From: Lentisphaerota bacterium
Lineage (GTDB): Bacteria; Verrucomicrobiota; Kiritimatiellia; RFP12; UBA3636
Reading direction: 5' to 3'
Assembly: GCA_022837245.1 (NCBI GenBank)
Contig: JALHHX010000001.1
Coordinates: 1 to 51,451 of the forward strand
DNA length: 51,451 bases
Under the pieces are notes generated by a model. That model was given only the letters and a program-made list of their open reading frames with translations, had not been told where the DNA came from and searched no databases. This document shows positions 640 through 14,691 of this stretch, in pieces. Position numbers and translations under genes: made by a program. Each line of letters begins with the position of its first letter. Within the stretch, counting starts at the first letter, position 1.

Positions 640-729
640 TTGCAAACATTCGCCAGCAACTGATATTATCCAACCCGTTTTCACGAGATTGCGCCGAATG
701 TTGACAATCGCCAGCCTGGGCGGCTGAAT
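640..729 (+). promoter_or_regulatory. candidate sigma70-like promoter hexamers upstream of the first operon gene
   Basis: TTGCAA(640-645), 18 nt spacer, TATTAT(664-669). TTGACA(701-706), 17 nt spacer, CTGAAT(724-729). Each -35-like hexamer is followed within 2-5 nt by CGCCAGC. A GGAGG RBS lies at 763-767, 5 nt before the ATG at 773. Confidence 0.3.
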
Positions 730-772
730 GCGGCTTGGCACGGCTGGCCCGGGCACGGCGCTGGAGGAACAC

Positions 773-1000
773 ATGGCGGAACCATCTGACAAGATAATGA
801 CCATCGAAGAGCTGGCGGAATACCTGAAGGTTTCCCGGTCGACGCTGTACAAGCTCCTCCAGGACGGCAAACTGCCGGGTCAGAAGGTGGGCAAGCGCTG
901 GCGCTTCCACCAGGATGCCATTGACGAGTGGGTAAAGAGCGGTACGGGCACCGTCGCGTCCCACAAAACCGGCCGTAACGCCAGTGAGGTCGGCGCATGA
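773..1000 (+). CDS. excisionase-family helix-turn-helix DNA-binding protein (HTH_17 type), 75 aa
   Basis: MTIEELAEYLKVSRSTLYKLLQDGKLPGQKVGKRWRFHQDAIDEWV matches the excisionase/MerR-like HTH pattern. The start was moved to the ATG at 773, which is preceded by GGAGG. Its stop overlaps the next start (ATGA at 997-1000). Confidence 0.75.
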   Translation: MAEPSDKIMTIEELAEYLKVSRSTLYKLLQDGKLPGQKVGKRWRFHQDAIDEWVKSGTGTVASHKTGRNASEVGA

Positions 1001-2538
1001 AGCAGACGATCTTCATCAGCAGCGTGCAGAAGGAACTGGCCGAGGAGCGCCGGGCGCTGAAGAGCTACATCCTCGGCGACGCCCTCTTGGGCCGGTTCTT
1101 CGATGTCTTCCTGTTCGAGGACATGCCCGCCGCTGATCGTCGTGCCGACAAGGTCTATCTGGATCAGGTGGATCGGTGCGACGTGTACCTGGGCCTTCTG
1201 GGCAACGAGTACGGCTACGAGGACGCCCAGGGCGTTTCGCCCACCGAGCGCGAGTTCGACCGGGCTACCGCCGCCGGGAAACAGCGGCTGATCTTCGTCA
1301 AGGGGGAGAACGACGCCGCCCGCCATCCGAAGATGCAGGCCCTCGTGCGCAAGGCTGGCGGTCAACTTATCCGGCGACGCTTCAGCAACCCGTCCGAACT
1401 GACTGCGTTGGCGTACTCCAGCCTCGTCGAGCACCTGGTCAACGCCGGGACCGTCCGCACCCGTCCCTTCGACGCAGCGGCATGTCCGGAGGCCACGCTT
1501 GATGATCTCTCGCGGCAGAAGGTGCAGGAGTTCCTGGCCCGCGCCCAGGCCGAGCGGAACTATCCGCTCGGTCCACGGACACCCACTCCCAAGGCGCTGG
1601 CCCACTTGAACCTTCTCGACGGAGAAAAGCCTACCCACGCCGCCGTTCTCCTGTTCGGAAAGCAGCCGCAGCGGTTCCTGCTGACATCGGAGGTCAAGTG
1701 CCTCCAGTTTCACGGCAACACGGTCGCCAAGCCGATCCCGGATTACCGCATCTTCAAAGGCACGGTGTTCGAGTTGGTGGATCAGGCTCTGGGATTCGTC
1801 ATGTCGAAGATCGCGGCATCGGTCGGCACCCGCGCGGAGAGCAGTCAGGCTCCCGTGACCTACGAGTTTCCCCGCGCGGCCGTTGCCGAGGCCATCGTCA
1901 ATGCCGTCGCGCACCGCGACTATGCGTCCAACGCCTCCGTTCAGGTCATGCTCTTCGCCGACCGGCTTGAAGTCTGGAACCCCGGCGAGTTGCCGCCGTC
2001 GCTCACACCCGCGTCGCTGCGGCTTCCCCATGCCTCGATTCCCCGCAACCCGCTTCTCGCCGAGCCGCTCTTCCTCACGCGGCACATCGAGAAGGCGGGA
2101 ACCGGCATCCTGGACATGATCGGCCTCTGCAAAGCCGCCAAGCTGCAGCCGCCCGAGTTCCGGCAGGAGATGGGCCAGTTCATCCAGACCCTCTGGCGGC
2201 CAAAGACCGTCATGGGCACTTCGTCGGGCCAGCACGGCGGGGTGCATGACGGGGTGCATGATGTGGCGCATGACGGGGTGCATGATCTGCATTTGACGGA
2301 GTTGATGCGGAGGATACTGGCAATGCTCACCACACCCGCATCAACCCCTGAACTGTTGAAAACGCTCGGCTATCCCCGCCGCACCCGGAACTATAGCGCG
2401 GCCATGAAGGCGCTGCTCGATGCCGAAATGATCGCGATGACACGGCCGGACGCCCCGCGAAGCAAGAACCAGGAATATCGCCTGACCGACAAAGGCCGGG
2501 AGCGCTTATCCGGAAGAGGCGGTGCCAAATCCACATGA
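997..2538 (+). CDS. DUF4062-like N-terminal domain fused to a COG2865-type middle region, HATPase_c_4 ATP-binding domain and C-terminal wHTH
   Basis: The N-terminus (IFISSVQKELAEERRALKSYIL...CDVYLGLLGNEYGY...SPTEREFDRA...RLIFVK) fits the DUF4062 pattern. AIVNAVAHRDY...LEVWNPG...EKAGTGI fits HATPase_c_4. The C-terminus is YRLTDKGRERL. Confidence 0.7.
   Translation: MKQTIFISSVQKELAEERRALKSYILGDALLGRFFDVFLFEDMPAADRRADKVYLDQVDRCDVYLGLLGNEYGYEDAQGVSPTEREFDRATAAGKQRLIFVKGENDAARHPKMQALVRKAGGQLIRRRFSNPSELTALAYSSLVEHLVNAGTVRTRPFDAAACPEATLDDLSRQKVQEFLARAQAERNYPLGPRTPTPKALAHLNLLDGEKPTHAAVLLFGKQPQRFLLTSEVKCLQFHGNTVAKPIPDYRIFKGTVFELVDQALGFVMSKIAASVGTRAESSQAPVTYEFPRAAVAEAIVNAVAHRDYASNASVQVMLFADRLEVWNPGELPPSLTPASLRLPHASIPRNPLLAEPLFLTRHIEKAGTGILDMIGLCKAAKLQPPEFRQEMGQFIQTLWRPKTVMGTSSGQHGGVHDGVHDVAHDGVHDLHLTELMRRILAMLTTPASTPELLKTLGYPRRTRNYSAAMKALLDAEMIAMTRPDAPRSKNQEYRLTDKGRERLSGRGGAKST
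2239..2286 (+). repeat. 12-bp in-frame tandem repeat, 4 units (GGGGTGCATGAC-like), encoding (G/A)VHD repeats
   Basis: Units at 2239-2250, 2251-2262, 2263-2274 and 2275-2286. They translate to GVHDGVHDVAHDGVHD, between the HATPase_c_4 domain and the C-terminal wHTH. Confidence 0.9.
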
Positions 2539-5396
2539 GCACCGCCTACCACAGCCAGTATTGGGCGCACGCTTTGACCCTTCGCGGGTCTGGCGGCGAC
2601 ATTGCTGCGCTGTCTCGGTCCATCGCCAACGCACGGGTTGACCTCAACCCCCACCAGATCGACGCGGCCCTGTTCGCCCTGCGCTCGCCCTTCACCAACG
2701 GGGCGATTCTGGCAGACGAGGTCGGACTGGGCAAGACCGTGGAGGCGGGCATCGTGCTGTCCCAGAAATGGGCCGAGCGCCGGCGGCGCATTCTCATCGT
2801 CGTCCCCGCCATGCTGCGGAAGCAGTGGCAGCAGGAGTTGAGCGAGAAGTTTTTCATCCCGTCGGAGGTCCTGGACACGCAGGTGACCGCTCGTCTCCGC
2901 AAGAACGGCGGTGGAAACCCGTTCGACCAGAAGAACAAGGCCGTCATCTGCTCCTACAACTTCGCGGCGGCCCGGGCATCCTCGGTTGCCCAGGTGCCGT
3001 GGGATATGGTGGTCATTGACGAAGCGCACCGACTGCGGAATGTTCACCGGTCCCGGACACGTTTGCAGAACAACCCGGCCGCACGGAAGACGATGGCCCA
3101 CCAGATTACGGAGGCGGTTGGGAAGGCCCCGAAACTGCTTCTGACCGCCACACCGCTTCAAAACTCCCTGCTGGAGTTGTTCAGCCTGGTCAGCGTCATC
3201 GACCCGCATGTCTTCGGGGATGCGGCCTCTTTTCGGGAGCAGTTCGTCAACAGCACCGACGAATTGTCCCGCAATGTGCAACTCAAGCAACGGATCGCGC
3301 CGGTCTGCACCCGTGCGTTGCGCAAGCAGGTGACCGAATACATCCCTTTCACCAACCGGGTGCCGATCACGCAAGAGTTTCTGCCGTCGGAGCAGGAGCA
3401 GAACCTGTACGATTCCATCACGACTTACCTGCAACGTGACGTGCTCTATGCTTTGCCCGCCAGCCAACGGCAACTCATCACGATGGTGCTGCGGAAGCTC
3501 CTGGCGTCGTCCACCTTTGCCATCGCTCGCACGCTCCGCAGTCTTGCGGCTCGCCTGGAGAACCTCCGCGACGACATGGAACTCCTGGACGATGACGACA
3601 TCGAGGGCGTGACCGAACTCGCGGACGAGTATGCCGAGGACGCCGAAGAGGAAGGTGACGCGAAGATCGACCCCGAACAACTGAAGGGTGAGTTGGCCGA
3701 TCTGCGGCGCTACGCTGACCTGGCGTCTTGCATCGGGCGCAATGCCAAAGGCGACGCCTTGCTCCCCGCACTCAAGACCGCGTTTGCCAAGGCCGAGGCA
3801 CTGGGAGCCCCACGCAAGGCCGTGATCTTCACCGAATCACGCGAGACCCAGACCTACCTCTACGATCTGCTGAGCGCCAACGGGTACGAGGGCCAAGTCG
3901 CCACGATCAACGGAACGAACAACCAGCCCCATCACGCCGACATCTACCAACGATGGCAAGCCAAGCACGAGGGAACGGATCGGCTCTCCGGCTCTCGCGC
4001 CGTGGACATGAAGGCCGCCATCGTCGAGCATTTCCGCGACGACGCCACGATTCTGGTCGCCACGGAGGCGGCCGCCGAGGGTGTCAACCTCCAGTTCTGC
4101 TCGCTGGTCGTCAACTTCGACCTGCCGTGGAACCCTCAGCGGATCGAGCAGCGCATCGGCCGCTGCCATCGGTACGGCCAGAAGCACGACGTGGTCGTGG
4201 TCAACTTCCTGAACCGCCGCAACGAGGCCGACAAGCGCGTGTACGAACTCCTCAGTGAGAAGTTCCGGCTCTTTGACGGTGTCTTTGGCGCGTCCGACGA
4301 GGTTCTCGGGGCATTGGAATCCGGCGTGGACATCGAGCGCCGCATTGCCGACGTGTACCAGACCTGCCGCACGAACGCCGAGATACAGGCCGCGTTCGAC
4401 GCCCTCCAAGCCGAACTGGACGCCAAGATTCAGGCCCGCCTGGCGGCCACGCGCCAGGCGCTCATGGAGAACTTCGACGAGGACGTGCGGTCGCGTCTGA
4501 AGATCAGCCGGGAGAAAACACTCGAATGCCTGTCCCAGCGGGAGCGATGGCTGCTCGATCTGACGCGTGTCGAGCTCGACGGACAGGCCCAGTTCGACCC
4601 GCAGATGCCGCGTTTCCTTTACAACGGCGACATCCCTGCGGGCGTCCGCCGAGGTTGGTATAACCTCGACTGGAAGGCGGCCGAGGCAGCCGACGAGCAC
4701 TTCTACCGTCCGGACCATCCCTTGGCCCATCGTCTCATCGAGCGCGCCATCGCCCGCCGTTTGCCCGTTGCTGAGGTCACCCTCGATTACACGAACCACC
4801 CGGCCAAGATCAGCGTGATCGAACCACTGGTGGGCCAGTCCGGCTGGCTGGAGGTCTCCAGACTCACGGTCGAGGCCGTCGAGGTCGACGAGTTTCTCGT
4901 CCTCGCCGCCCGCACGGATCACAACCAGATTCTCGACGATGAGATTTGCCGCAAGCTGTTATCACTTCCAGCCACGCTCGGTTCCGAGATCACGGACGTG
5001 CCCGATCTGACCGAACAGCGAAAGGCCGAGGTCGCAGCCCGCCTGGGCGAGATCGACACCCGCAACGGTCAATTCTTCGATGAGGAGGTCCAGAAGCTAG
5101 ACCGCTGGAGCGAAGACCTAAAGCTCTCACTCGAACACGAGATCAAGGAACTCGACAAACAGATTCGCGAGTTGCGCCGCTCCGCCGCCCTCGCGCAGTC
5201 GTTGCAGGACAAGCTCGCCCACCAGAAACAACTGCGCGATCTCGAACGCCGCCGCAACGGCAAGCGGCGCGAGCTATTCGACGCCCAGGACGCCATTGAC
5301 CAGCAACGGGAAGACCTGATCGGCAAGATCGAGAAGCAGTTGAAGCACACCTATGGCGTGAAAGCGCTGTTTGCGATCCGATGGAGGGTGGCATGA
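2535..5396 (+). CDS. SNF2-family ATPase/helicase with a long C-terminal extension ending in a charged coiled coil
   Basis: Motif I ILADEVGLGKTVEAG; motif II VVIDEAHRLRN; motif III LLLTATPLQNSL; helicase-C block ILVATEAAAEGVNLQFCSLVVNFDLPWNPQRIEQRIGRCHRYGQ. ATGA overlaps at both ends (2535 and 5393). Confidence 0.9.
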   Translation: MSTAYHSQYWAHALTLRGSGGDIAALSRSIANARVDLNPHQIDAALFALRSPFTNGAILADEVGLGKTVEAGIVLSQKWAERRRRILIVVPAMLRKQWQQELSEKFFIPSEVLDTQVTARLRKNGGGNPFDQKNKAVICSYNFAAARASSVAQVPWDMVVIDEAHRLRNVHRSRTRLQNNPAARKTMAHQITEAVGKAPKLLLTATPLQNSLLELFSLVSVIDPHVFGDAASFREQFVNSTDELSRNVQLKQRIAPVCTRALRKQVTEYIPFTNRVPITQEFLPSEQEQNLYDSITTYLQRDVLYALPASQRQLITMVLRKLLASSTFAIARTLRSLAARLENLRDDMELLDDDDIEGVTELADEYAEDAEEEGDAKIDPEQLKGELADLRRYADLASCIGRNAKGDALLPALKTAFAKAEALGAPRKAVIFTESRETQTYLYDLLSANGYEGQVATINGTNNQPHHADIYQRWQAKHEGTDRLSGSRAVDMKAAIVEHFRDDATILVATEAAAEGVNLQFCSLVVNFDLPWNPQRIEQRIGRCHRYGQKHDVVVVNFLNRRNEADKRVYELLSEKFRLFDGVFGASDEVLGALESGVDIERRIADVYQTCRTNAEIQAAFDALQAELDAKIQARLAATRQALMENFDEDVRSRLKISREKTLECLSQRERWLLDLTRVELDGQAQFDPQMPRFLYNGDIPAGVRRGWYNLDWKAAEAADEHFYRPDHPLAHRLIERAIARRLPVAEVTLDYTNHPAKISVIEPLVGQSGWLEVSRLTVEAVEVDEFLVLAARTDHNQILDDEICRKLLSLPATLGSEITDVPDLTEQRKAEVAARLGEIDTRNGQFFDEEVQKLDRWSEDLKLSLEHEIKELDKQIRELRRSAALAQSLQDKLAHQKQLRDLERRRNGKRRELFDAQDAIDQQREDLIGKIEKQLKHTYGVKALFAIRWRVA

Positions 5397-6988
5397 CCGA
5401 GAAGAGATTAACCGCAAAGAGCGCAGAGAACGCAAAGAAGGGCAAGACATCGAAGAAGCCATTTGGTGAGAAGGAGGGGCTGGCATTGGAGTTCAAGCGG
5501 GCGACGGATCGGCTGCCGGTCAATTTCTTCGATACCGTTTGCGCCTTTCTCAACATGGATGGCGGACTGATTGTGCTCGGCGTGGACGACGATGGTACGG
5601 TCTCCGGGGTGAACGAGGATGCCATCGAACGGATCAAGGCGGACATTGCCAACCTGTCGAACAACCCGCAGAAGCTCGATCCGCCGCATCTTCTGTTTCC
5701 GCACGAAGAGCAGGCTGGCGACAAGTGGGTCATCAAGGTGCTCGTGCCCGCCAGTTCGCAGGTGCATCAGGTGGGCGGCAGCGTCTTTCTGCGCAGCGAG
5801 GACGGCGACTATCGGATCAAGGGCGTCAACCGCCTGGCCGGTCTGATGAACCGCAAGCTGAGTTTCTTCACCGAACAGCGCGTCTATCCCTATTTGGGCA
5901 TCAAAGATCTCGATCCCGCCCTATTTGAGAAGGCGAAGAAACTGATGCTGGGGCGTCAGCCGCAACACCCATGGGCGAATCTGCCGCCAGAGGAACTACT
6001 CAAGGTCGCCGGTTTTGTGCGGCAGGACTATTCCACCGGCAAGCCCGGCTACACCCTGGCCGCCGCCCTGATGTTCGGCTATGACACGACGATCCAGAGC
6101 ATTGTGCCCGGCTACAAGTTCGATGCGCTCCTGCGCCGCCGCGACACCGAACGCTACGACGACCGCCTGATTGTCCGGGGCAACTTGATTGACGCGTTCG
6201 ATCTGCTCATGGGCTTCGTCGACAAGCACCTGAACGATCCGTTCTACATGGAAGGCACCACGAGTATCAGCTTGCGCTCGATCATTTTCCGTGAACTGGT
6301 TGCCAACATCATTGCCCACCGCGAATACACCAGCGCCGCGCCGGCCACGATGATGATCTACACCGACCGTGTCGAGTTCAAGAACCCGAATGTGCCGCAT
6401 TATCACGGCCGTATAGATCCCGGCAATTTCACGCCGTTTCCCAAGAACCCGACCATCTGCAAGTTTATGATCCAGATTGGCCGTTACGAGGAACTCGGCT
6501 CCGGCGTCCGCAAGGTGAATCTGTACCTGCCGCACTACGCCCCCGGTGCGGGCAAACCGGTGTTCGAGGATGGCGACATGTTCAAGGTGACCGTGCCCTT
6601 GGTGGTGGCTGGCACGACGAAAACCGAGATCGGTGAGCAAGTCACCCCGGAAGTCACGGCACCAGTTACGGCACCAGTTGCGGCACCAGTTACGGCACCA
6701 GTTACGGCACCAGTTACGGCACCAGTCGCGGCACCAGTCAGTAACTATGTCAGCCGCCTCCTCGGCCTGCTAGAGGCCGATAAAGCGCTTGGAAACGCAG
6801 AAATCCTGCAATCGTTTGAACTGAAAAGCCGTCGGCGACTGAGGGAAACGTATATTCATCCGGCGCTGGAAGATGGCCTTATCGAAATGACGGTCCCGGA
6901 CAAACCCACCAGCCGCCTGCAGAAGTATCGCCTCACCGAAAAAGGGCGGGCGGTTCTGCGGCAGGCGAAGACGGAGGCAAGGAAATGA
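5393..6988 (+). CDS. COG2865-type protein: AlbA_2 (Schlafen-like) N-terminal domain, HATPase_c_4 domain, repeat linker and C-terminal wHTH
   Basis: LALEFKRATDRLPVNFFDTVCAFLNMDGGLIVLGVDDDGTVSGV fits the AlbA_2 pattern. LVANIIAHREY...VEFKNPN...EELGSGV fits HATPase_c_4. The C-terminus is YRLTEKGRAVL. The start was set to the ATG at 5393 (GGAGG at 5383-5387, ATGA overlap with the SNF2 stop). Confidence 0.8.
   Translation: MTEKRLTAKSAENAKKGKTSKKPFGEKEGLALEFKRATDRLPVNFFDTVCAFLNMDGGLIVLGVDDDGTVSGVNEDAIERIKADIANLSNNPQKLDPPHLLFPHEEQAGDKWVIKVLVPASSQVHQVGGSVFLRSEDGDYRIKGVNRLAGLMNRKLSFFTEQRVYPYLGIKDLDPALFEKAKKLMLGRQPQHPWANLPPEELLKVAGFVRQDYSTGKPGYTLAAALMFGYDTTIQSIVPGYKFDALLRRRDTERYDDRLIVRGNLIDAFDLLMGFVDKHLNDPFYMEGTTSISLRSIIFRELVANIIAHREYTSAAPATMMIYTDRVEFKNPNVPHYHGRIDPGNFTPFPKNPTICKFMIQIGRYEELGSGVRKVNLYLPHYAPGAGKPVFEDGDMFKVTVPLVVAGTTKTEIGEQVTPEVTAPVTAPVAAPVTAPVTAPVTAPVAAPVSNYVSRLLGLLEADKALGNAEILQSFELKSRRRLRETYIHPALEDGLIEMTVPDKPTSRLQKYRLTEKGRAVLRQAKTEARK
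6658..6741 (+). repeat. 12-bp in-frame tandem repeat, 7 units (GGCACCAGTTAC-like), encoding (T/A)APV repeats
   Basis: Units start at 6658, 6670, 6682, 6694, 6706, 6718 and 6730. They translate to TAPVTAPVAAPVTAPVTAPVTAPVAAPV. Confidence 0.9.
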
Positions 6989-7830
6989 ACAACCGCCAAG
7001 ACGCTATGAGCGCAAAGGGAGTAGTTGAAAACTGCGTGGATGAAAGCGAGCAACTGCGATGCGCTAATTCGCGTAAATACTGCCTTTTCGACACCAGCGT
7101 ACTCGTGCCGTACTTCCTGCCTCATTCGCACAAGGAAGCTAAAGTGCATGAGCGAGCGGTGGCGATCATCGAGTCCGTCCGCTCAAAAGCGTCCGAACAT
7201 TTCTTCTACATCCCAAACTTCTGCATTGCCGAAGTCTTCAGCACCTTCGCAAAGCACGCCTACGGAGACTGGAACAAGCAGGTAAGCAGCGGCACCATCG
7301 ACGGGCGCGTACACGCATCCCTGCGAAAACAGTTTCAGGACGACATTCATAACGCTGCGCTATTCTACCATTACGAACTGTCTCGGTATCATGTGCTGAC
7401 CGTGAACATCGTTGCTCCAGTGGACCACTATTTCAAACTCGGCCGTGGTGACGGCCGCAGGATTGTGCCATCGGGAACATTCGATCAACTTATCGCCGCT
7501 ATGGGTATTCACCTGACGAAGATTCACGGCGCGGGAAATGTAGTCGTAATCACCGCCGACAACCGTCTCGCCAAGTTGATTAGAAAATGTCGGTCACCCA
7601 TTTCCGCGACCGCCCGCAAGACGATGAAGATCGCCGATGCCGAGCGTTTCGTCGGGATACCATTTCAAGCGGACAGTTTTCCGTTGGTGCTCGATCTGGC
7701 TACCGCAAAAGACAGAGACCTGCAGGCCGTGTTCGGCGAGTGGCCGCTTCCCGTGGCCGGGCGTTACAAACGGCCATGTCATCTAAAGAGGAAACGATCC
7801 GCGCCTCCGCGTGAGAAAACAAAGGATTGA
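6985..7830 (+). CDS. hypothetical protein with PIN-like acidic motif pattern (possible nuclease) and a basic C-terminal tail
   Basis: Ordered motifs resemble the four PIN acidic positions: CLFDTSVLVPYF, FCIAEVFSTF, GTFDQLIAAMG, VVVITADNRLAKL. ATGA overlap with the upstream gene at 6985. No other family was recognised. Confidence 0.45.
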   Translation: MNNRQDAMSAKGVVENCVDESEQLRCANSRKYCLFDTSVLVPYFLPHSHKEAKVHERAVAIIESVRSKASEHFFYIPNFCIAEVFSTFAKHAYGDWNKQVSSGTIDGRVHASLRKQFQDDIHNAALFYHYELSRYHVLTVNIVAPVDHYFKLGRGDGRRIVPSGTFDQLIAAMGIHLTKIHGAGNVVVITADNRLAKLIRKCRSPISATARKTMKIADAERFVGIPFQADSFPLVLDLATAKDRDLQAVFGEWPLPVAGRYKRPCHLKRKRSAPPREKTKD

Positions 7831-7832
7831 AT

Positions 7833-9635
7833 ATGGCAAAGAGCAACACACGTCTGGAACTAACCTGGATCGGCAAGGAGAACCGGCCCAAACTGGAGCC
7901 GCGCATCCTGCTCGAGGACCCGGAGAAGTCGTATCACGCCGCCCAGCGGGTGACGGACAACGACATCTTCGATAATCGCCTGATCTTCGGCGACAACCTG
8001 CTCGCCCTCAAGGCGCTCGAACAGGAATTCGGGGGTAGGATCAAGTGCATTTACATCGATCCACCATTCAACACGGGATCCGCCTTTGAGCACTATGACG
8101 ATGGTGTTGAGCACTCACTGTGGCTCGCCCTTATGCGTGACCGCTTCGAGAGCCTGAGGCGACTGATGACAAACGACGGGTTGTTCTTCCTTCACTTGGA
8201 TGACGGGGAGATGGCCTACGCGAAGGTGCTCCTTGACGAAGTCTTTGGCCGCTTTAATTACTGCAACACCATTTGCATGACGACGAACGACCCCTCGGGT
8301 TTCAAAGCAACTGGTGCGACCGTGTTTTCGACGGCGAACTATCTGCTGGTCTATGCGAAGGATAAATCGACTGCCCCAATGCGCAAGGTGTTCATTGAAA
8401 AGTCCTATGATACTGCATACTCAAAGGTTCTTGCAGATAGAGCAGCCTCGTATGATCGGTGGTCGTGGGAGGGCATCAATGACGTCGTGGCACGTGAACT
8501 GGGCTTTGACTCGGTGCGCACGGCCAAACGTGAGGTGGGCGATGCGTTCGAGGACGAAGTAGCACGGTTCGCGGTCACGAACGCCGAAAGGGTGTTTCAG
8601 ACGGCTGCGATAGGGGGTGGCGCAGCGATCAAGAGGGCTGCTACCATTCGCCAGTCAATGCAAGAGCGCCAGCGGGTGTTTGTTCATCCCGGCGAGGATG
8701 TCCCTGACTTCTACATTCTAAACGGCAGGCAGATTCTGTTTTATGACAAGCGGCTTATTGAGATCGATGGCCGTCGGATACCCGGTGAAATCGTTACTGA
8801 CGTCTGGACGGACATCTCGTGGAACGGCATCAGCAATGAAGGATCAGTTGAATTCAAGAACGGAAAGAAGCCGGAACTCCTGATTAAGCGTGTGTTGGAC
8901 ATGGCGACCGGTCCCGGAGACATCGTCCTCGATTCCTTCGCCGGTTCCGGGACGACCGGAGCTGTTGCCCACAAGATGGGCCGCCGGTGGATCATGGTGG
9001 AACTTGGGGAGCACTGCCACACGCACATCATCCCCCGGATGAGGAAAGTGATTGATGGCGAGGACCAGGGTGGGATCAGCAAGGCAGTCAACTGGAAGGG
9101 CGGCGGCGGGTTCCGGTACTATCGGCTCGGACCCTCCCTTATCGTCAATGATGAGTGGGAGAATCCAGTCATCAACCCTGATTTCAACGCCACGATGCTG
9201 GCCGAGGCGATGTGCAAGCTGGAGGGCTTCACCTTCGAGCCGAACGCCGACATCTACTGGCAGCAGGGCCGAAGCTCGGAGACGGACTTCATCTACGTGA
9301 CCACACAGATGATGACGAAGGAGATGCTGACGAAGCTCAGCGACGAAGTCGGGCCGAATAGAAGCCTGCTGATCTGCTGCGGGGCGTTCCGCTGCGATGT
9401 AAGCCAGTTCGAGAACCTGACCGTGAAGAAGATTCCGAAGGCAGTCCTCAAGAAGTGCGAGTGGGGCCACGACGACTACTCGTTGGAGATCCGCAACCTA
9501 CCGGTGAGAATCGAAGAGAGATTAACCGCAGATGACGCAGATGAACGCAGATTGGGAAAGCGGGTTAGAAAGTTTGGGAAAGGCAAGGATTTAGGGCCTA
9601 TGCTGTTTGATTTTGCCGAGGACACATCATCATGA
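7833..9635 (+). CDS. mod: type III-like DNA methyltransferase (Mod; beta-class N6-adenine or N4-cytosine MTase)
   Basis: Motif IV (IYIDPPFNTG) precedes motif I (VLDSFAGSGTTGAVAHKMGRRWIMVEL). This order is typical of N6_N4_Mtase / type III Mod. The start was moved to the ATG at 7833, after AAGGA. Confidence 0.88.
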   Translation: MAKSNTRLELTWIGKENRPKLEPRILLEDPEKSYHAAQRVTDNDIFDNRLIFGDNLLALKALEQEFGGRIKCIYIDPPFNTGSAFEHYDDGVEHSLWLALMRDRFESLRRLMTNDGLFFLHLDDGEMAYAKVLLDEVFGRFNYCNTICMTTNDPSGFKATGATVFSTANYLLVYAKDKSTAPMRKVFIEKSYDTAYSKVLADRAASYDRWSWEGINDVVARELGFDSVRTAKREVGDAFEDEVARFAVTNAERVFQTAAIGGGAAIKRAATIRQSMQERQRVFVHPGEDVPDFYILNGRQILFYDKRLIEIDGRRIPGEIVTDVWTDISWNGISNEGSVEFKNGKKPELLIKRVLDMATGPGDIVLDSFAGSGTTGAVAHKMGRRWIMVELGEHCHTHIIPRMRKVIDGEDQGGISKAVNWKGGGGFRYYRLGPSLIVNDEWENPVINPDFNATMLAEAMCKLEGFTFEPNADIYWQQGRSSETDFIYVTTQMMTKEMLTKLSDEVGPNRSLLICCGAFRCDVSQFENLTVKKIPKAVLKKCEWGHDDYSLEIRNLPVRIEERLTADDADERRLGKRVRKFGKGKDLGPMLFDFAEDTSS

Positions 9636-10096
9636 GTTCTGACCATCTTCTGCGACAATCTGCGCCATCTGCGGTTCACCAAGACTCTGCGCCATCCGTG
9701 GTTTCCCGCGACCCGGAGACGTTTGCCATCATTGGCGCTGCAATGGAAGTTCACAGTGTCCTCGGTAACGGCTTTCTTGAAGCTGTTTATCAGGACGCTC
9801 TTGAACGAGAGTTTGTCATGCGCGGCATTCCGTATCAGCGTGAGCAACCCATCCCGGTCTTGTACAAGGGATGCCAACTGTCCACGCCCTATAGGGCTGA
9901 TTTCGTCTGCTATGACGGCATCATTGTAGAGCTGAAGGCCATCAAGAAGCTAACGGAAATCGAAGACGCGCAAGTGCTGCACTATCTCAAAGCCACGGAC
10001 CTCGATCGGGCGCTTCTGTTCAACTTCGCCACCCCGCGTCTTGAGCATAAGCGTTTCGTAAATCACTATCTGCGTGAATCTGCGTCATCTGCGGTT
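9524..10096 (+). mobile_element. possible MITE-like cassette carrying the GxxExxY gene, bounded by inverted ATCTGCG/CGCAGAT heptamer arrays
   Basis: CGCAGAT occurs 3 times, starting at 9527, 9536 and 9546. ATCTGCG occurs 3 times, starting at 10068, 10078 and 10087. 9524-9542 (AACCGCAGATGACGCAGAT) is the perfect reverse complement of 10078-10096. An extra direct array of the heptamer lies at 9649-9691. Confidence 0.4.
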
Positions 10097-10117
10097 CAAA
10101 TCGGAGCCCATTCATGA
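9632..10117 (+). CDS. GxxExxY family protein (PD-(D/E)XK nuclease superfamily)
   Basis: GNGFLEAVYQDAL contains the GxxExxY signature. YRADFVCYDGIIVELKA provides the D...ExK nuclease-like core. ATGA overlaps at both ends (9632 and 10114). Confidence 0.85.
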   Translation: MSSDHLLRQSAPSAVHQDSAPSVVSRDPETFAIIGAAMEVHSVLGNGFLEAVYQDALEREFVMRGIPYQREQPIPVLYKGCQLSTPYRADFVCYDGIIVELKAIKKLTEIEDAQVLHYLKATDLDRALLFNFATPRLEHKRFVNHYLRESASSAVQIGAHS

Positions 10118-12834
10118 GCATTCAACACATCAATTCCATCAGCAATCGCCTGAGTCTACGGCCTCCCCAGCGGGACTCTCTCGAAATCCTGGCCCGGGTC
10201 TGCGAGATCATCGAGTTGTCGAAGGACGCCGATCCCGTCGCGGCTCTGACGGCGATCAAGAGCGAGTTTTCCACGGTTGATGACTTTGAGCGGGAGTTCC
10301 CATCGCTGTGCTTCGCGATTGCCACAGGCGTCGGGAAAACACGGCTCATGGGTGCGTTCATCGCCTACCTCTACCAGTCCGAGGGCATCCGCAACTTCTT
10401 CGTGTTGGCTCCGAACCTCACGATCTACAACAAGCTGATCGCCGACTTCACACCCAACACGCCGAAGTATGTCTTCAAGGGAATTGGCGAGTTCGCCGTT
10501 CATCCCCCTCTCGTGGTGACCGGCGACACCTACGAGGACGGGCGCGGTGTGCGGCGCGACGATCAACTCCCCGGCGTGGACTGGGGCCACGATGTCCACA
10601 TCAACATCTTCAACATCTCGAAGATCAACAGCGAGGTGCGGGGCGGCAGCGCCCCCCGTATCAAGCGGCTCAGCGAGTACATCGGCCAGAGCTACTTCGA
10701 TTATCTCGCCGGGCTGGAAGACCTGGTCATGCTGATGGACGAGAGCCATCGCTATCGGGCCACGGCAGGCGTGCGGGCGATCAACGAACTGAAGCCGATT
10801 CTCGGCCTGGAACTGACCGCGACGCCGCAAGTCGAGACCGGCGGGCGGGCGGTGCCATTCAAGAACGTGATTTACAGCTACCCGCTGTCCTCGGCAATGA
10901 CGGATGGGTTCGTCAAAGAACCCGCCGTGGCGACCCGCGAGAACTTCGATCCGAACGCATATTCGGCCGAGGGTCTGGAGAAGGTGAAGCTCGAGGACGG
11001 CGTGCGGATTCACGAGAACACGAAGGTCGAGTTGGAGGTCTACGCCCGCAACAACGACAAGACCATCGTCAAGCCGTTCATGCTGGTCGTGGCGACCGAC
11101 ACGGCGCACGCCAATGCCCTTCAACAGGTCATCGAGGGCGACGGGTTCTTCGAGGGGCGGTACAAGGGCAAAGTCATCCAGGTCCACTCCAACATCCGGG
11201 GCGAGGAGAAGGACGATGTCGTCCAACAACTCTTGACTGTCGAGCACGCCGACAACCCGGTGGAGATTGTCATCCACGTCAACATGCTCAAGGAAGGCTG
11301 GGACGTGACCAACCTCTACACGATTGTTCCGCTGCGGGCGGCGAACTCCCGGACACTCGTGGAACAGTCCATCGGGCGCGGTTTGCGCCTCCCCTACGGC
11401 AAGCGTGTGGGCGTTCCGGCGGTCGACCGGCTGACGATTGTTTCGCACGACAAGTTCCAGGAGATCGTCGACCACGCCAACGATCCGGACTCCATCATCC
11501 GGGCGGGTGTGGTGATCGGGCGGGATATTCCCGAGGCCGGTCGGAAGGCCGTGGAGGTGAAGAGCGCCTTCGAGCACGCTATCTCGGGAGGCACTGTCCC
11601 CGCGCGGCCAGCGGCTCCCGGACAGCCAGCGGCAGAACAGAGAACGCTCTTCGAAAAGCCGGAGGAACAGGCTGTCGCCAAGGCGACCTACCAGGTCATC
11701 AAACAGTACGAGCGACTCAAGGGCAGCGATCAACTCCAGGACACGGCCGTCCAGGCGGAGATCGTGCAGAAAGTCCAGGAGATCGTCCGGCCCGCACAAG
11801 GGGTGCTGGAAGGCATTACCGAAGTCGTGAACGTGGCCGAGGTGGTGCGCGAAACCACGGAACTGTACCGGGCGCTCTCCATCGACGTGCCGAAGATCGT
11901 GGTCGTTCCCAAGGGCGAGGTCACGTGCGGCTACGAAGACTTCGACCTGGACGTTCGTAACGTCAACCAGCAACCCGTCGAGCAGAGCATACTCATCAAG
12001 CAACTGCACGACCAAGGACTTTATCGGCTCATGGACGGCAGCGGTATCATCGCGGAGAAGCGGCCCGAGGACTACCTGGTGCGCGGCCTGATTGACTTCG
12101 ACGATGTCAGTTACGACGAGCACGCGGCGCTCCTGTACAAGCTCGCCGGGCAGGTCGTGGCGCGGCTTCGGTCGTATCTGTCGGAAGAAGACGACGTAAC
12201 CAATGTCCTCCAGTTCCACCAGCAGGCGCTCGTAAACCTAATCCACGCTCAGATGCAGCAGCACTACGTCGAATCCGCGAGCGCCTATGAGGCCCACGTA
12301 ACGCGGGGATTCCGCACCTTGCGCTCGAACAATTACTCGGCGGCCGCCGACGAGAACGTGCGGGATTTCCGGGCGACGATTCCGGAGGGCCAGCGCAACC
12401 GTATCGGCACGATGGTCTTCGGCGGTTTCTTCAAGTGCCTGTATCCGATCCAAAAGTTCGATTCCGACCCGGAGCGCCGGTTCGCGGTGATCCTGGAGAA
12501 CGAAGCCGACGTGCTGAAGTGGTTCAAGCCCGCCAAGGGCGACTTCCAGATTCACTACAGCCACGAGGAATCCTACGAACCCGACTTCGTCGTGGAGACG
12601 ACGACGGAAAAGCTCCTCTGCGAGCCGAAGCGGGCAAACGAAATGACTGACGAGGTCGTGCTGGCCAAGGCCGATGCGGCGGCTACCTGGAGTAAACACG
12701 CCACGTCACACGCCAATGAGAACGGCGGCAAGCCCTGGCGCTATCTCCTGATCCCTCACGACCAGATACAGGATCAGATGACCCTTGCCGGGCTGGCCGC
12801 GCGGCACGAGGTGCGGGCGAAAAGTGATGTGTGA
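10114..12834 (+). CDS. res: type III restriction enzyme Res subunit (SF2 helicase plus C-terminal PD-(D/E)XK endonuclease motif)
   Basis: Motif I FAIATGVGKTRLMG; motif II LVMLMDESHRY; motif III LELTATP; motifs V-VI NMLKEGWDVTNLYTIVPLR...EQSIGRGLRLPYG. C-terminal YEPDFVVE...LCEPKRA fits PD...ExK. Confidence 0.9.
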   Translation: MSIQHINSISNRLSLRPPQRDSLEILARVCEIIELSKDADPVAALTAIKSEFSTVDDFEREFPSLCFAIATGVGKTRLMGAFIAYLYQSEGIRNFFVLAPNLTIYNKLIADFTPNTPKYVFKGIGEFAVHPPLVVTGDTYEDGRGVRRDDQLPGVDWGHDVHINIFNISKINSEVRGGSAPRIKRLSEYIGQSYFDYLAGLEDLVMLMDESHRYRATAGVRAINELKPILGLELTATPQVETGGRAVPFKNVIYSYPLSSAMTDGFVKEPAVATRENFDPNAYSAEGLEKVKLEDGVRIHENTKVELEVYARNNDKTIVKPFMLVVATDTAHANALQQVIEGDGFFEGRYKGKVIQVHSNIRGEEKDDVVQQLLTVEHADNPVEIVIHVNMLKEGWDVTNLYTIVPLRAANSRTLVEQSIGRGLRLPYGKRVGVPAVDRLTIVSHDKFQEIVDHANDPDSIIRAGVVIGRDIPEAGRKAVEVKSAFEHAISGGTVPARPAAPGQPAAEQRTLFEKPEEQAVAKATYQVIKQYERLKGSDQLQDTAVQAEIVQKVQEIVRPAQGVLEGITEVVNVAEVVRETTELYRALSIDVPKIVVVPKGEVTCGYEDFDLDVRNVNQQPVEQSILIKQLHDQGLYRLMDGSGIIAEKRPEDYLVRGLIDFDDVSYDEHAALLYKLAGQVVARLRSYLSEEDDVTNVLQFHQQALVNLIHAQMQQHYVESASAYEAHVTRGFRTLRSNNYSAAADENVRDFRATIPEGQRNRIGTMVFGGFFKCLYPIQKFDSDPERRFAVILENEADVLKWFKPAKGDFQIHYSHEESYEPDFVVETTTEKLLCEPKRANEMTDEVVLAKADAAATWSKHATSHANENGGKPWRYLLIPHDQIQDQMTLAGLAARHEVRAKSDV

Positions 12835-12843
12835 AGTGCACCG

Positions 12844-13392
12844 ATGGGGCACATCCGACTTGGACAACTGCCGCGAACGCGCAAATGGCGGGACGTCGCT
12901 GAACTCGTCGCCGTTGGCGCGGACGTGTCCCAAGTCGCCAATGCCACGATCCGGGCGGCCGACTCTGCATTCTCATTCGTCAACAACGATTCCGGTTACA
13001 ACCAGGCCGTCTGGCTGATGACCCAGCTTGGCCTCGCCGCCGGGGAGAAGGACCCGCTGAAGTATCTGCGGTCCCAGGGGATCGACATCCCCGACAACAC
13101 GTCGTTGCCCGGCGTGGCCGCCGCGATCACTCAGGCGTTGGACAATCATTCAGAGTCCAACGGCGGGCATTCCGCTTTGGGCGAACGAGCCGCATCCCCG
13201 GCCATTCGACGGTGGCTCTGCCGCCATTGCGCCAAGCGATGGAGCCCCGTCTTACCCTCGTTTGGAATCACCCTCTTCGGTGTCCAGTATTTGACGAAAG
13301 AAATCCGCCTGATGAACCGCCCCAGTTTCGCTTGGTGTCTTTTCTATTTGACGAATTGCGGGTATCGGTCTTTGGAAAGTCTTTGGATTTAG
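12844..13392 (+). CDS. hypothetical protein, possibly a degraded or truncated gene remnant
   Basis: The first ~115 aa (MGHIRLGQLPRTRKWRDVAELV...) look protein-like. The C-terminal ~65 aa are Cys/Trp/Arg-rich and look non-native, and an alternative frame (13212-13412) looks equally plausible. The base composition appears to become more AT-rich after ~13250. Confidence 0.3.
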   Translation: MGHIRLGQLPRTRKWRDVAELVAVGADVSQVANATIRAADSAFSFVNNDSGYNQAVWLMTQLGLAAGEKDPLKYLRSQGIDIPDNTSLPGVAAAITQALDNHSESNGGHSALGERAASPAIRRWLCRHCAKRWSPVLPSFGITLFGVQYLTKEIRLMNRPSFAWCLFYLTNCGYRSLESLWI

Positions 13393-13650
13393 AACCTGAG
13401 ACCGGTCATTGACAGCACCATGTCTGCGGCCATCGCCTTTGGGATAATCTTTGCCGCTCATTATTAAACACGCATCAAGTTTACTTGCCACATCCATGGT
13501 GGTACATTGACGATGTTTCTTCGGCGTGTTATTCACCGGATGTTTTTTGCAGGGGGTTTTTCACATAAATGTGCAATAGGAATTGCTTAAACGTTGCTTA
13601 CAACCCCTAAAAACTCCTCAAAACGGCTCTTTCATGTGGTCAAGAACATG

Positions 13651-13688
13651 AGAAAAGAAAAGCCTCGCAAGCCGCGGCTTGCAAGGCT
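13651..13688 (-). terminator. intrinsic terminator of tRNA-Lys
   Basis: The minus strand reads AGCCTTGCAAGC-CGCG-GCTTGCGAGGCT (12-bp stem with one G-U pair), followed by TTTTCTTTTCTC. It begins 8 nt after the tRNA 3' end. Confidence 0.7.
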
Positions 13689-13695
13689 TGTGAGA

Positions 13696-13771
13696 TGGTG
13701 AGACGTCCGGGGTTCGAACCCGGGACCCCGTGATTAAAAGTCACGTGCTCTACCGACTGAGCTAACGTCCC
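13696..13771 (-). tRNA. tRNA-Lys (anticodon UUU), 76 nt with encoded CCA
   Basis: The minus strand reads GGGACGT-TA-GCTC-AGTCGGTA-GAGC-A-CGTGA-CTTTTAA-TCACG-GGGTC-CCGGG-TTCGAAC-CCCGG-ACGTCTC-A-CCA. It folds by hand into a cloverleaf, and the anticodon loop CTTTTAA gives TTT. Confidence 0.92.
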
Positions 13772-13938
13772 GCAAGATTTGCTTGTTTCGGGAAGCTTCT
13801 GGCTCCCTGAAACACTTCGGCTTGGGAAATTACCATTATAACCCCGCGATGTCAATTTCATTTTTCTATGAATCGTCCCCGCAAAGGAGTACAATGTGCC
13901 GGTATTTTGGAAGTAGAGGAGGCGACCGACGGAAGCAG

Positions 13939-14691
13939 ATGAACACGATTGTCATAAAGACACCGGAAGAAATAGAAATGATGCGCCAGGCGGGCGGCAA
14001 GGCGGCGGAGGTGTTGAGAATAGTCTGCGACGCCGTCAAACCAGGGGTCACCACCAAGGAGCTGGACGATCTCGCGCTGCAAACGATGGAGGGTCTCGGC
14101 GTCACAAGTGCTTTCCTCAACTACATGGGCTATCCGGCGCAGACATGCATTTCGGTGAACGACACGGTTATACACGGCATACCGGGCAACAGGAAGATCA
14201 AGGATGGCGACATCGTTAGCATCGACGTCGGCGTTTGGCACAATGGGTTCGTTGGCGACAACGCAAAGACCGTGATGGTCAACGTCACTGATCCGGAAGT
14301 CAAGGCGCTCGTGCATAACACGGAGGCGGCACTGATGGCCGGCGTAGCCGAGGCGAAGCCCGGAGGCAGGCTCGGGGACATCTCGCATGCCGTGGAGGTT
14401 ATGGCGAATAAGAGCAAATTGTCCGTGGTCCGCGAATTCGTCGGCCACGGCTGCGGCCGCAAAATGCACGAGGAGCCGCAAATTCCCAATTATGGGCCTT
14501 CGGGCCGCGGGCCGCTGTTGCGCGAAGGCATGGTGCTCTGCATCGAGCCGATGCTCAACCTTGGCGCACGCAGAATACGCACGCTTGATGACGGCTGGAC
14601 GGTGGTGACAGCGGACGGCAAGCCCTCGGCGCATTTTGAACACATGGTGGCCATAACGGCTGACGGGCCGGAAATCCTGACGCCACGATAA
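13939..14691 (+). CDS. map: type I methionine aminopeptidase
   Basis: IKTPEEIEMMRQAG...VIHGIPG...GDIVSIDVG...GFVGD...FVGHGCGRKMHEEP...CIEPM...HFEHMV are typical Map metal-ligand blocks. The start was set to the ATG at 13939, after GAGGAGG. Confidence 0.92.
   Translation: MNTIVIKTPEEIEMMRQAGGKAAEVLRIVCDAVKPGVTTKELDDLALQTMEGLGVTSAFLNYMGYPAQTCISVNDTVIHGIPGNRKIKDGDIVSIDVGVWHNGFVGDNAKTVMVNVTDPEVKALVHNTEAALMAGVAEAKPGGRLGDISHAVEVMANKSKLSVVREFVGHGCGRKMHEEPQIPNYGPSGRGPLLREGMVLCIEPMLNLGARRIRTLDDGWTVVTADGKPSAHFEHMVAITADGPEILTPR

Follow-up and report, generated by a model that had tools for sequence, protein, structure and literature searches.

DUF4062 has been recognised as a TIR-like NADase effector of anti-phage defence in two 2026 preprints, on the Swarozyc (10.64898/2026.05.01.722283) and Evangelion (10.64898/2026.06.25.731849) systems, in which the domain is also described at the head of NACHT/TEP1-like proteins. 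NADase activity and abortive infection have been demonstrated experimentally for the Swarozyc protein KpSwz, which yields ADP-ribose and nicotinamide and depletes NAD+ (10.64898/2026.05.01.722283), and have been proposed for Eva01 of the plasmid-borne Evangelion family (10.64898/2026.06.25.731849). Independent defence genes are, moreover, known to be genetically embedded in Hma, BREX, DISARM and Type I restriction-modification (R-M) systems, and one of the families embedded most often is COG2865, which is designated FAM_00002 and accounts for several hundred rows of Tables S6 and S7 (Payne et al. 2024, 10.1101/2024.01.29.577857). Here we describe protein A (513 aa), in which a DUF4062 head is joined to a COG2865-type body, and the row of R-M genes in which it resides on contig JALHHX010000001.1 of Lentisphaerota bacterium (assembly GCA_022837245.1). 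The window under analysis, 51,451 nt in length, is the complete contig, and the island carrying this row is therefore cut off at its upstream end.

The combination of DUF4062, HATPase_c_4 and a C-terminal winged helix-turn-helix (wHTH) is already catalogued in the supplementary tables of Payne et al., where cluster CLU_00184 of Table S7 comprises DUF4062+HATPase_c_4 proteins of 514-518 aa (10.1101/2024.01.29.577857), and it is listed there without an assigned function. The main text of both DUF4062 preprints is silent on HATPase_c_4, Schlafen, SNF2 and DISARM, and the supplement of one of them makes no mention of HATPase_c_4, Fic or restriction. The evidence presented below leads us to regard A as probably an autonomous, single-polypeptide anti-phage sensor-effector, which acts by NAD+ depletion and is carried as an embedded accessory cassette in R-M operons.

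The DUF4062 head of protein A

A sequence-only reading of the window had proposed that A begins with a DUF4062-like domain, and that this domain may act as a signalling or effector module, given that it heads some conflict-system NTPases. The first proposal is borne out by Pfam PF13271, which matches A with 77 bits against a cutoff of 24.7 and is covered from position 2 to position 82 of its 82 positions. In addition, a profile of the A family matches the solved DUF4062 chains of KpSwz (10wc, 11cq and 11cv) with an E value of 1.3e-8, aligning A residues 3-174 with KpSwz residues 5-180, so that the similarity reaches into the helical stalk and ends at A174. Every cryo-EM structure in the Swarozyc preprint, in which R18 and D71 are named, was made with KpSwz(15-C, E97A) (10.64898/2026.05.01.722283). 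The numbering of the deposited chain is offset by 13 (R5 corresponding to R18 and D58 to D71), and its Ala84 is therefore residue 97, the site of the E97A mutation. It is opposite this alanine that E86 of A is placed in the profile alignment, as the equivalent of KpSwz E97 and Eva01 E87. E86 is invariant in 113 A homologs, and S81, P82, T83 and E84 are each conserved in at least 90% of them. The second proposal, of an effector module, thus agrees both with the two preprints and with the invariance of the predicted catalytic glutamate in the A family.

The AlphaFold (AF2) model of A has a predicted local distance difference test (pLDDT) score of 85 overall and about 90 in the head. The Foldseek neighbours of the head are nucleoside 2'-deoxyribosyltransferases, the CMP N-glycosidase BcmB and the TIR domains of SARM1, plant proteins and STING (8pqt, 4jen, 7o62, SARM1 TIR, RRS1 TIR and SfSTING TIR; E 6e-5 to 4e-3). 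The head of A is a bona fide DUF4062 domain, for which the model predicts an alpha/beta fold of the TIR/nucleoside-deoxyribosyltransferase-like kind, and by analogy with KpSwz and Eva01 it would be expected to have NAD+ glycohydrolase activity. We also considered A as a Swarozyc protein proper, and rejected this assignment, as the remainder of A past residue 174 is a COG2865 body and not an AUX domain of the KpSwz type.

The shared body and the exchangeable winged helix

The row contains a second protein with a body of this kind, B (531 aa), and the genes for A and B flank that of an SNF2 helicase, as the sequence-only reading had pointed out. It had further described the back ends of A and B as otherwise identical. 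Their homology is firmly established: BLASTP aligns A249-504 with B257-522 at an E value of 2e-13, hhalign of the two family alignments yields a probability of 99.9 and an E value of 1.2e-35 over A213-513 and B221-531, with 25% identity, and the two AlphaFold models display an identical order of helices and strands from H173 of A and H175 of B through the C-terminus. Identical, however, they are not, the bodies sharing only 24-25% of their residues, and by this measure A and B are old paralogs, not the outcome of a recent duplication with a head swap. What holds is that they represent head-swapped versions of one scaffold, with DUF4062 in A and AlbA_2 in B placed on a homologous body.

The best match to both models in the Protein Data Bank (PDB) is the COG2865 crystal structure 3LMM, to which A aligns in Foldseek over roughly 400-450 columns with an E value of 2e-13. 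A possesses the middle domain, the HATPase_c_4 domain and the wHTH of COG2865; the N-terminal AlbA_2 domain, which is present in B, is replaced in A by DUF4062. Pfam HATPase_c_4 is recognised in A at aa 313-396 (E 5e-19) and in B at aa 320-393, in the latter case with 25.3 bits (E 1.6e-5), just below the cutoff of 26. The conserved motifs of the A body are E298xxxN302..H306R307xY309, W327NPG330 and E365KAGTG370, and the residues E298, N302, H306, R307, Y309, P329, G330, E365, G368, G370 and D373 are invariant. In the model of A, the HATPase_c_4 region consists of a helix, two strands, a flexible loop (aa 343-347, pLDDT <50), a helix, a Gly-rich loop, a helix and two strands. This order of elements fits a degenerate GHKL (Bergerat) nucleotide-binding module, and the equivalent region of B weakly matches histidine-kinase CA domains in Foldseek.

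The bodies of A and B also match the PADLOC models PDLC02402 and PDLC02394 (Aga_SIR2-PNTD1-PNTD2, pAgo), with E values from 1e-14 to 6e-6, suggesting that the same body may also be fused to SIR2 heads and some Argonautes. A literature search for the names PNTD1 and PNTD2 returned nothing relevant.

The 4-aa repeat linkers that had been noticed between body and tail correspond to real 12-nt tandem arrays in both genes, as detected by Tandem Repeats Finder (TRF), and the linker of A (aa 407-429) is modelled with pLDDT <50. The wHTH that follows matches the C-terminal domain of PDB entry 4RGL (E 7e-15) and is the least conserved part of the A family, with a mean pairwise identity of 0.41 as compared to 0.67-0.79 elsewhere. 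Over aa 1-402, two homologs (P0003 and P0004) share 95-99% of their residues with A, a figure that drops to 31-38% across the wHTH (aa 432-505). In these alleles the winged helix has been swapped at the linker, in the manner of a specificity module. Another homolog, P0082, from a 10.4-kb ENA contig, is chimeric: instead of the DUF4062 head it begins with a P-loop fragment (AAA_15/AAA_23, 129 aa), joined at A residue 117, and the remainder is near-identical to A117-405 and then continues into a different wHTH allele. Taken together, the tail swaps and the chimera define two recombination joints, one between head and body and the other between body and tail at the linker. P0010 shares the HTH-A-SNF2 context of the window, yet its wHTH is only 36% identical to that of A, indicating that the tail does not track SNF2.

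The head of B had been assigned to AlbA_2 (Schlafen-like), in agreement with its Pfam match (Table 1). The AlphaFold model of B has a pLDDT of 86, the B-family profile matches SLFN13, SLFN14, SLFN5, SLFN12 and SLFN11, and Foldseek retrieves SLFN cores and the SAMD9 tRNase domain. Residues E28, E33 and D66 are conserved in at least 90% of the B family and align with the E-x4-E-F-K...GVDD motif, which we take to contain E205, E210 and D248 of rSlfn13. Judging from this alignment, B is most likely a Schlafen-type endoribonuclease-headed counterpart of A, with the equivalents of the catalytic triad preserved. The closest relatives of B, 81% and 79% identical, are located amid unrelated defence-like genes, with no SNF2 among them.

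Distribution of the A family and its genomic settings

A protein search with A yielded 7,168 clusters at an E value of 1e-5 or better. The top 120 of these are all at least 60% identical to A, originate from Planctomycetota, Verrucomicrobiota, Actinomycetota, Pseudomonadota, archaea and other groups, and contain the three domains of A in all but a few fragments and chimeras. When one genome per species was scanned (185,579 species genomes), the architecture was found at no fewer than 599 loci in bacteria and archaea, and 80 loci at 45-70% identity were kept for a survey of genomic context.

Among same-strand neighbours located no more than two genes away from A, the enriched families are components of Type I R-M systems (HsdM_N, Methylase_S, HSDR_N and YgjP), as well as Type III R-M parts, ResIII and SNF2 helicases and ABC-type ATPases. 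At two loci (L022 and L057) the layout is hsdM-hsdS-A-hsdR-ygjP, with A in the slot of prrC; at another (L037), A is preceded by an AAA_15/AAA_21 ATPase gene and followed by hsdR. L081, in which A is 83% identical, has the order A-Mod-(23S_rRNA_IVP)-Res, without SNF2. Other copies are solo, such as that of L085 and a full-length homolog, 51% identical, which stands alone beside parB/rep on two Legionella plasmids (NZ_CP021275.1 and NZ_CP082853.1), the first of them conjugative by typing; these homologs are annotated as "ATP-binding protein". In several Legionella plasmids, e.g. pLPP of strain Paris, the A-homolog gene is split into two annotated pieces. The only phage-borne matches were partial, covering the body alone, and came from unannotated faecal "Bacteriophage sp." contigs. 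Overall, A homologs reside in R-M or defence loci, chiefly in Type I R-M operons, or on plasmids, and not in the housekeeping contexts for which the sequence-only reading had allowed.

A second HATPase_c_4 gene was found within two genes of A, on the same strand, in 8 cases. At L046, from a Latescibacterota metagenome-assembled genome, positions 9986-14351 hold an A homolog, which overlaps by 4 nt with a paralog of AlbA_2+HATPase_c_4+HTH_24 composition, and a third gene with the same body, with no SNF2 between them.

A and B as separate cassettes

The relationship between A and its neighbours in the window is best seen by comparison with a sister locus, L091, from metagenome LSQX01, one of whose housekeeping proteins shares at least 90% identity with a protein of this contig. 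The protein identities between L091 and the window are 95% for SNF2, 100% for B, 95% for p281 (a 281-aa protein encoded after B), 99% and 87% for two segments of the Mod methyltransferase, and 99% for Res. A, however, is absent from L091: window positions 934-2526, comprising the end of the small HTH gene and all of A, are replaced by 16 nt, and the HTH stop codon overlaps the start of SNF2. The GxxExxY cassette is missing as well, with window positions 9503-10111 replaced by 145 nt. Two further loci, L086 and L087, retain the HTH-A-SNF2 arrangement, with A 75% and SNF2 89% identical; in L086, SNF2 is followed by a 969-aa PHP/SMC-like ATPase and there is no B or p281, and the sequence of L087 breaks off within SNF2. 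Direct repeats or att sites could not be found around A, and only the GxxExxY cassette is flanked by repeats.

A therefore displays the hallmarks of genetic embedding, as it is nested in a multi-gene system, is lacking from L091 and is also found outside such systems. Its absence from L091, the solo copies on Legionella plasmids and in L085, and its spread over many phyla and archaea all point to A being mobile and probably autonomous. From these comparisons, A and B most likely entered the operon independently and in two different slots, A between the HTH and SNF2 genes, and B together with p281 in the SNF2-Mod hotspot described below. In L091, p281 adjoins B as it does in the window, and it was seen at no other locus examined; it may be a partner of B.

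The small HTH_17 gene was also tried as a constant partner of A, and rejected: among the loci examined, it immediately precedes A in L086 and L087 alone, and in none of the 78 GTDB loci. In the 80 A loci, tblastn almost never places SNF2, B, Mod or Res of the window beside A. An SNF2 gene is present near A in only 4 of these 80 genomes by tblastn, and five neighbouring ORFs have a Pfam SNF2 domain; the SNF2 genes near A homologs belong to a different SNF2 family and lie on the opposite side of A.

The SNF2-Mod-Res core and its variable slot

To define the system in which A is embedded, 80 metagenome loci with full-length homologs of the SNF2 protein (L091-L170) were surveyed. A window-type Mod gene is located downstream of SNF2 in 51 of the 80, with Res also present in 36, and the majority of the others end too early for this to be judged. 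What is conserved is SNF2-(variable slot)-Mod-Res, with SNF2 as its first gene. By its pair of Mod and Res genes (PADLOC, Pfam) the host system qualifies as Type III R-M; no published name was found for the SNF2-Mod-Res core.

The gap between SNF2 and Mod ranges from 8-36 nt (L120, L124, L125, L135, L140, L148, L164 and L168) up to about 8 kb. The 77 ORFs found in such gaps include AAA_21 (21), SMC_N (16), AAA_15 (14), DUF2130 (6), HerA (5), AIPR (5), OLD-TOPRIM (4), SIR2_2 (3), DUF4276 (3) and SLFN_AlbA_2 (3), as well as TIR_2, ThsA_Macro, KwaB, Abi_2 and KAP NTPase, and the gap is a hotspot for many unrelated defence modules. COG2865-type genes occur in about 5 of the 80 loci (L091, L098 with two, L134, L153 and L157). 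That of L157 is a DUF4062+HATPase_c_4 protein, 33% identical, which lies upstream of a 48%-identical SNF2-Mod-Res. Hidden Markov model search places an HTH_17 gene immediately before SNF2 in 4 of 76 loci, and tblastn adds three further matches, among them L091.

Direct repeats of 30 nt, 90% identical to each other (9649-9678 and 10069-10098), flank the GxxExxY gene in the Mod-Res gap, which appears to be another place where small cassettes insert. The 23S_rRNA_IVP gene of L081 occupies the same slot. Another 30-nt direct repeat, 80% identical, has one copy at the start of B, just past the SNF2/B junction (5398-5427), and the other at the end of Mod (9512-9541), exactly where the divergence from L091 sets in; the pair may be the scar of a recombination event or may have arisen by chance.

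Two known systems were tried for the row and rejected. The SNF2 protein matches NCBIfam DISARM_DrmD_b with 707 bits, under the cutoff of 950 and over aa 30-674 only, and no match to DrmA, DrmB (DUF1998), DrmC or DrmMI was obtained in the row (PADLOC, NCBIfam), which does not qualify it as class 1 DISARM. Of MADS (mad2-mad8, with MAD6-8 mandatory in the authors' model), only the small HTH protein finds a match, to NCBIfam MAD1, with 72 bits and below the cutoff of 80.

Organization of the gene row

The first 13.4 kb of the window form one row of nine genes on the plus strand (Table 1), in which stop and start codons overlap or abut within 4 nt. The row ends at a tRNA-Lys gene, beyond which lie housekeeping genes, and no convincing gene was found in positions 1-727, between the contig end and the HTH gene. 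The latter likely starts at the ATG at 773, which is preceded by GGAGGA. The promoter-like site at 640-669 is not enriched over shuffled sequences; its position fits a single operon start. The last ORF of the row has no family match and no homolog across the fetched loci.

Table 1. Coordinates of genes, domains and other features of the row (positions in the window; E values and scores as obtained)
Feature	Position	Strand	Evidence or remark
Promoter-like site TTGCAA-18-TATTAT, extended TG	640-669	+	About 100 nt before the row's first gene; consensus match only
Small HTH_17/excisionase-type DNA-binding protein, MAD1-like	728-1000	+	Pfam HTH_17 7e-19
Protein A, 513 aa: DUF4062 head, COG2865-type body, repeat linker, wHTH	997-2538	+	
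DUF4062 domain of A, aa 5-90	1009-1266	+	Pfam PF13271 E 1.3e-21
Motif S81-P-T-E84-R-E86-F87 of A	1237-1257	+	E86 codon 1252-1254, predicted catalytic Glu
Shared body of A, aa ~160-402: alpha/beta middle domain and HATPase_c_4	1474-2202	+	HATPase_c_4 aa 313-396 = nt 1933-2184
12-nt x 4 tandem repeat, coding for the disordered (G/A)VHD linker of A	2238-2285	+	TRF
C-terminal winged helix of A, Fic-like_C aa 438-497, ending in YRLTDKGR	2308-2487	+	Pfam E 5e-8
SNF2 helicase, 953 aa, DrmD-like	2535-5396	+	Pfam SNF2-rel_dom and Helicase_C
Protein B, 531 aa: Schlafen/AlbA_2 head, body, repeat linker, wHTH	5393-6988	+	Alternative ATG at 5381
Head of B, SLFN_AlbA_2, aa 28-142	5474-5818	+	Pfam E 5e-15
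12-nt x 7.2 tandem repeat, linker of B	6652-6738	+	TRF
wHTH of B, Fic-like_C, aa 453-515	6749-6937	+	Pfam E 1e-21
p281, 281-aa protein	6985-7830	+	Weak PIN-like signal, Pfam PIN E 0.065
Type III-like Mod methyltransferase (N6_N4_Mtase)	7827-9635	+	Pfam 2.7e-37; PADLOC MTase_III 717 bits
GxxExxY/PDDEXK_3 small protein	9632-10117	+	TIGR04256 1.9e-40
Type III-like Res (ResIII helicase and C-terminal endonuclease)	10114-12834	+	Pfam ResIII 1.5e-20; PADLOC REase_III 782 bits
182-aa orphan ORF after Res	12844-13392	+	
tRNA-Lys(UUU), downstream island edge	13696-13771	-	ARAGORN

Possible mode of action and alternative explanations

If A is a defence cassette, its COG2865 body would stand where Swarozyc and Evangelion have their AUX sensor domains. 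In an uninfected cell, the heads of A would be kept inactive; upon infection, a phage-derived cue, most likely a nucleic acid or a nucleotide state, would be sensed by the body and the wHTH and would drive oligomerisation of the heads, which would then hydrolyse NAD+, so that the infected cell ceases to support the phage. Such abortive infection would back up restriction by the co-transcribed SNF2-Mod-Res. We infer the trigger, the oligomerisation and the abortive-infection outcome for A. A part of the wHTH in sensing would be in line with the swapping of tails between alleles that are 95-99% identical elsewhere. B would be a device of the same type with a Schlafen-type endoribonuclease head, neither of the two requiring the other.

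A number of observations weigh against this interpretation. The "Q/W/E" motif, which is stressed for Evangelion, is not conserved in the alignment of the A family, and the body of A is unrelated to the phage-portal-binding AUX domain of KpSwz. COG2865 proteins are annotated as transcriptional regulators, and multi-gene cassettes with this family were marked "Reject" as defence candidates (Payne et al. 2024, 10.1101/2024.01.29.577857); these cassettes include the tandem FAM_00002>>FAM_00002, with 46 instances (10.1101/2024.01.29.577857). None of the PADLOC candidate models matches A or B, whose bodies match only the pAgo-associated models. Finally, about 11 of 78 A loci (~14%) have a second gene of the body family within 10 kb, and at L046 A is directly followed by an AlbA_2-headed paralog, so that cooperation between paralogs is possible. 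A broader version of such cooperation, which we put forward very tentatively and think unlikely to hold in full, would make the COG2865 body a plug-in immune sensor with exchangeable heads (NADase, Schlafen RNase and possibly SIR2) and an equally exchangeable wHTH tail for specificity, in which paralogs with different heads, such as A and B or those of L046, hetero-oligomerise via the GHKL-like module and a single event, perhaps failure of the adjacent restriction complex with its superfamily 2 (SF2) motor, triggers NAD+ depletion together with RNA cleavage.

Several other roles can be envisaged for A. It could resemble PrrC in guarding restriction, A (and B) being held latent on the host R-M or SF2-translocase complex and firing when a phage inhibits that complex, in which case its function would be R-M-dependent. 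This would suit the occurrence of A homologs in the exact prrC slot (hsdM-hsdS-A-hsdR) of L022 and L057, the commonest context of A, which is next to an SF2 motor (HsdR, Res or SNF2), the translational coupling of the window genes by 4-nt overlaps, and the distant homolog located upstream of SNF2-Mod-Res in L157. We nevertheless consider it unlikely, as solo copies on Legionella plasmids and in L085 have no R-M nearby, one A family (~50-83% identical) is found beside three kinds of R-M system, and the wHTH is independent of the partner system, as seen in P0010. Nor do we give much credence to the view that A and B are DNA-binding transcription factors tuning the operon, with heads that serve as NAD/nucleotide input domains and not as toxins. 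Both proteins do have a C-terminal wHTH of the MarR/Fic-like_C type, "predicted HTH transcriptional regulator" is the source annotation, and A is near the operon start beside another HTH gene. However, the catalytic Glu is invariant over 113 sequences along with the surrounding motif, the Schlafen acidic triad is kept in B, the sister locus L091 does without A, A is internal in Type I operons, and the position of regulator is already taken by the separate small HTH gene.

The sequence-only reading pointed to two sensor/effector variants of one scaffold bracketing the SNF2 motor, and this can be developed into a model of A, SNF2 and B as one dedicated machine, with either head docking on the motor by way of the shared scaffold. 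The gene order, with its overlapping stop and start codons, the recurrence of HTH-A-SNF2 in L086 and L087, and the B-like genes that follow SNF2 in L098 (two) and L134 (one) would be compatible with this idea, but the comparative data largely refute it and leave it improbable. L091 lacks A although the rest is 95-100% identical at the protein level, except for the C-terminal segment of Mod (87%); L086 has A, but the SMC-like ATPase replaces B; a COG2865-type gene is present in only about 5 of the 80 SNF2-family loci; the closest relatives of B have no SNF2 beside them, and few A homologs do (4 of 80); and SNF2 directly abuts Mod in 8 loci. A conserved A-SNF2-B unit was likewise ruled out by tblastn of all window proteins against the 80 A-centred and 80 SNF2-centred loci. 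Least of all do we favour a signalling role, in which the TIR-like head would, in the manner of Thoeris, convert NAD+ into a nucleotide second messenger and so activate a separate effector of the operon, for instance B or p281 with its PIN-like signal. Signalling in place of NAD+ depletion is the function of many bacterial TIR domains, and candidate nucleases are encoded downstream of A; still, KpSwz yields ADP-ribose and nicotinamide and depletes NAD+, and A is alone in many loci without a conserved partner, which makes such signalling highly improbable.

DUF4062 was recognised as a NADase defence domain only in 2026, with just two kinds of sensor tail. Its combination with HATPase_c_4 and wHTH is far more widespread, and was left aside when embedded defence genes were searched for systematically. 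If A is a NADase abortive-infection device, a very large family, currently annotated as "ATP-binding protein", "RecG", "Fic family" or "HTH regulator", would gain a function, and the much larger family of Schlafen-headed COG2865 proteins would offer a bacterial counterpart of the eukaryotic Schlafens that is open to testing. The head and tail swaps constitute natural chimeras for separating the parts responsible for sensing from those responsible for killing. The survey also defines a conserved SNF2-Mod-Res operon with an internal gap rich in defence modules.

Comparison with known systems

With class 1 DISARM and Hma, the row in the window shares a DrmD-like SNF2 protein and an operon slot that likewise collects unrelated defence modules. 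It differs from them in having no DrmA, DrmB, DrmC, HmaB or HmaC, in its partners, which are Type III-like Mod and Res, and in the C-terminal third of the SNF2 protein. The anticodon nucleases PrrC and RloC occupy the slot between hsdS and hsdR, as do many A homologs, and provide a precedent for a suicidal effector coupled to restriction. In contrast to them, A has neither an ABC ATPase nor an anticodon-nuclease domain, its predicted effector is a NADase, and it is also found solo. The head of B matches the SLFN core of eukaryotic Schlafens (SLFN11/13/14) and SAMD9 and retains the E-x4-E...D acidic triad; unlike the eukaryotic Schlafens, B is a bacterial protein of 531 aa, lacks the SLFN helicase domain and is fused to a COG2865 body.

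COG2865 proteins themselves (AlbA_2, HATPase_c_4 and wHTH; 3LMM, DIP2311) share their fold and domain order with the body of A and are commonly embedded in BREX, DISARM and Type I R-M loci, the difference being that the Schlafen/AlbA_2 head of a typical member is replaced in A by DUF4062. The head, in turn, links A to Swarozyc (KpSwz) and Evangelion (Eva01), which likewise have an N-terminal DUF4062 with an equivalent catalytic Glu, combine effector and C-terminal sensor in a single gene and, like A, are horizontally mobile, plasmid-borne or defence-island genes. As sensor, KpSwz has an AUX domain that binds the phage portal and Eva01 a short AUX, and in A the putative sensor is a COG2865 body of about 350 aa; the A family has not conserved the Q/W/E motif, and A is typically found inside R-M operons.

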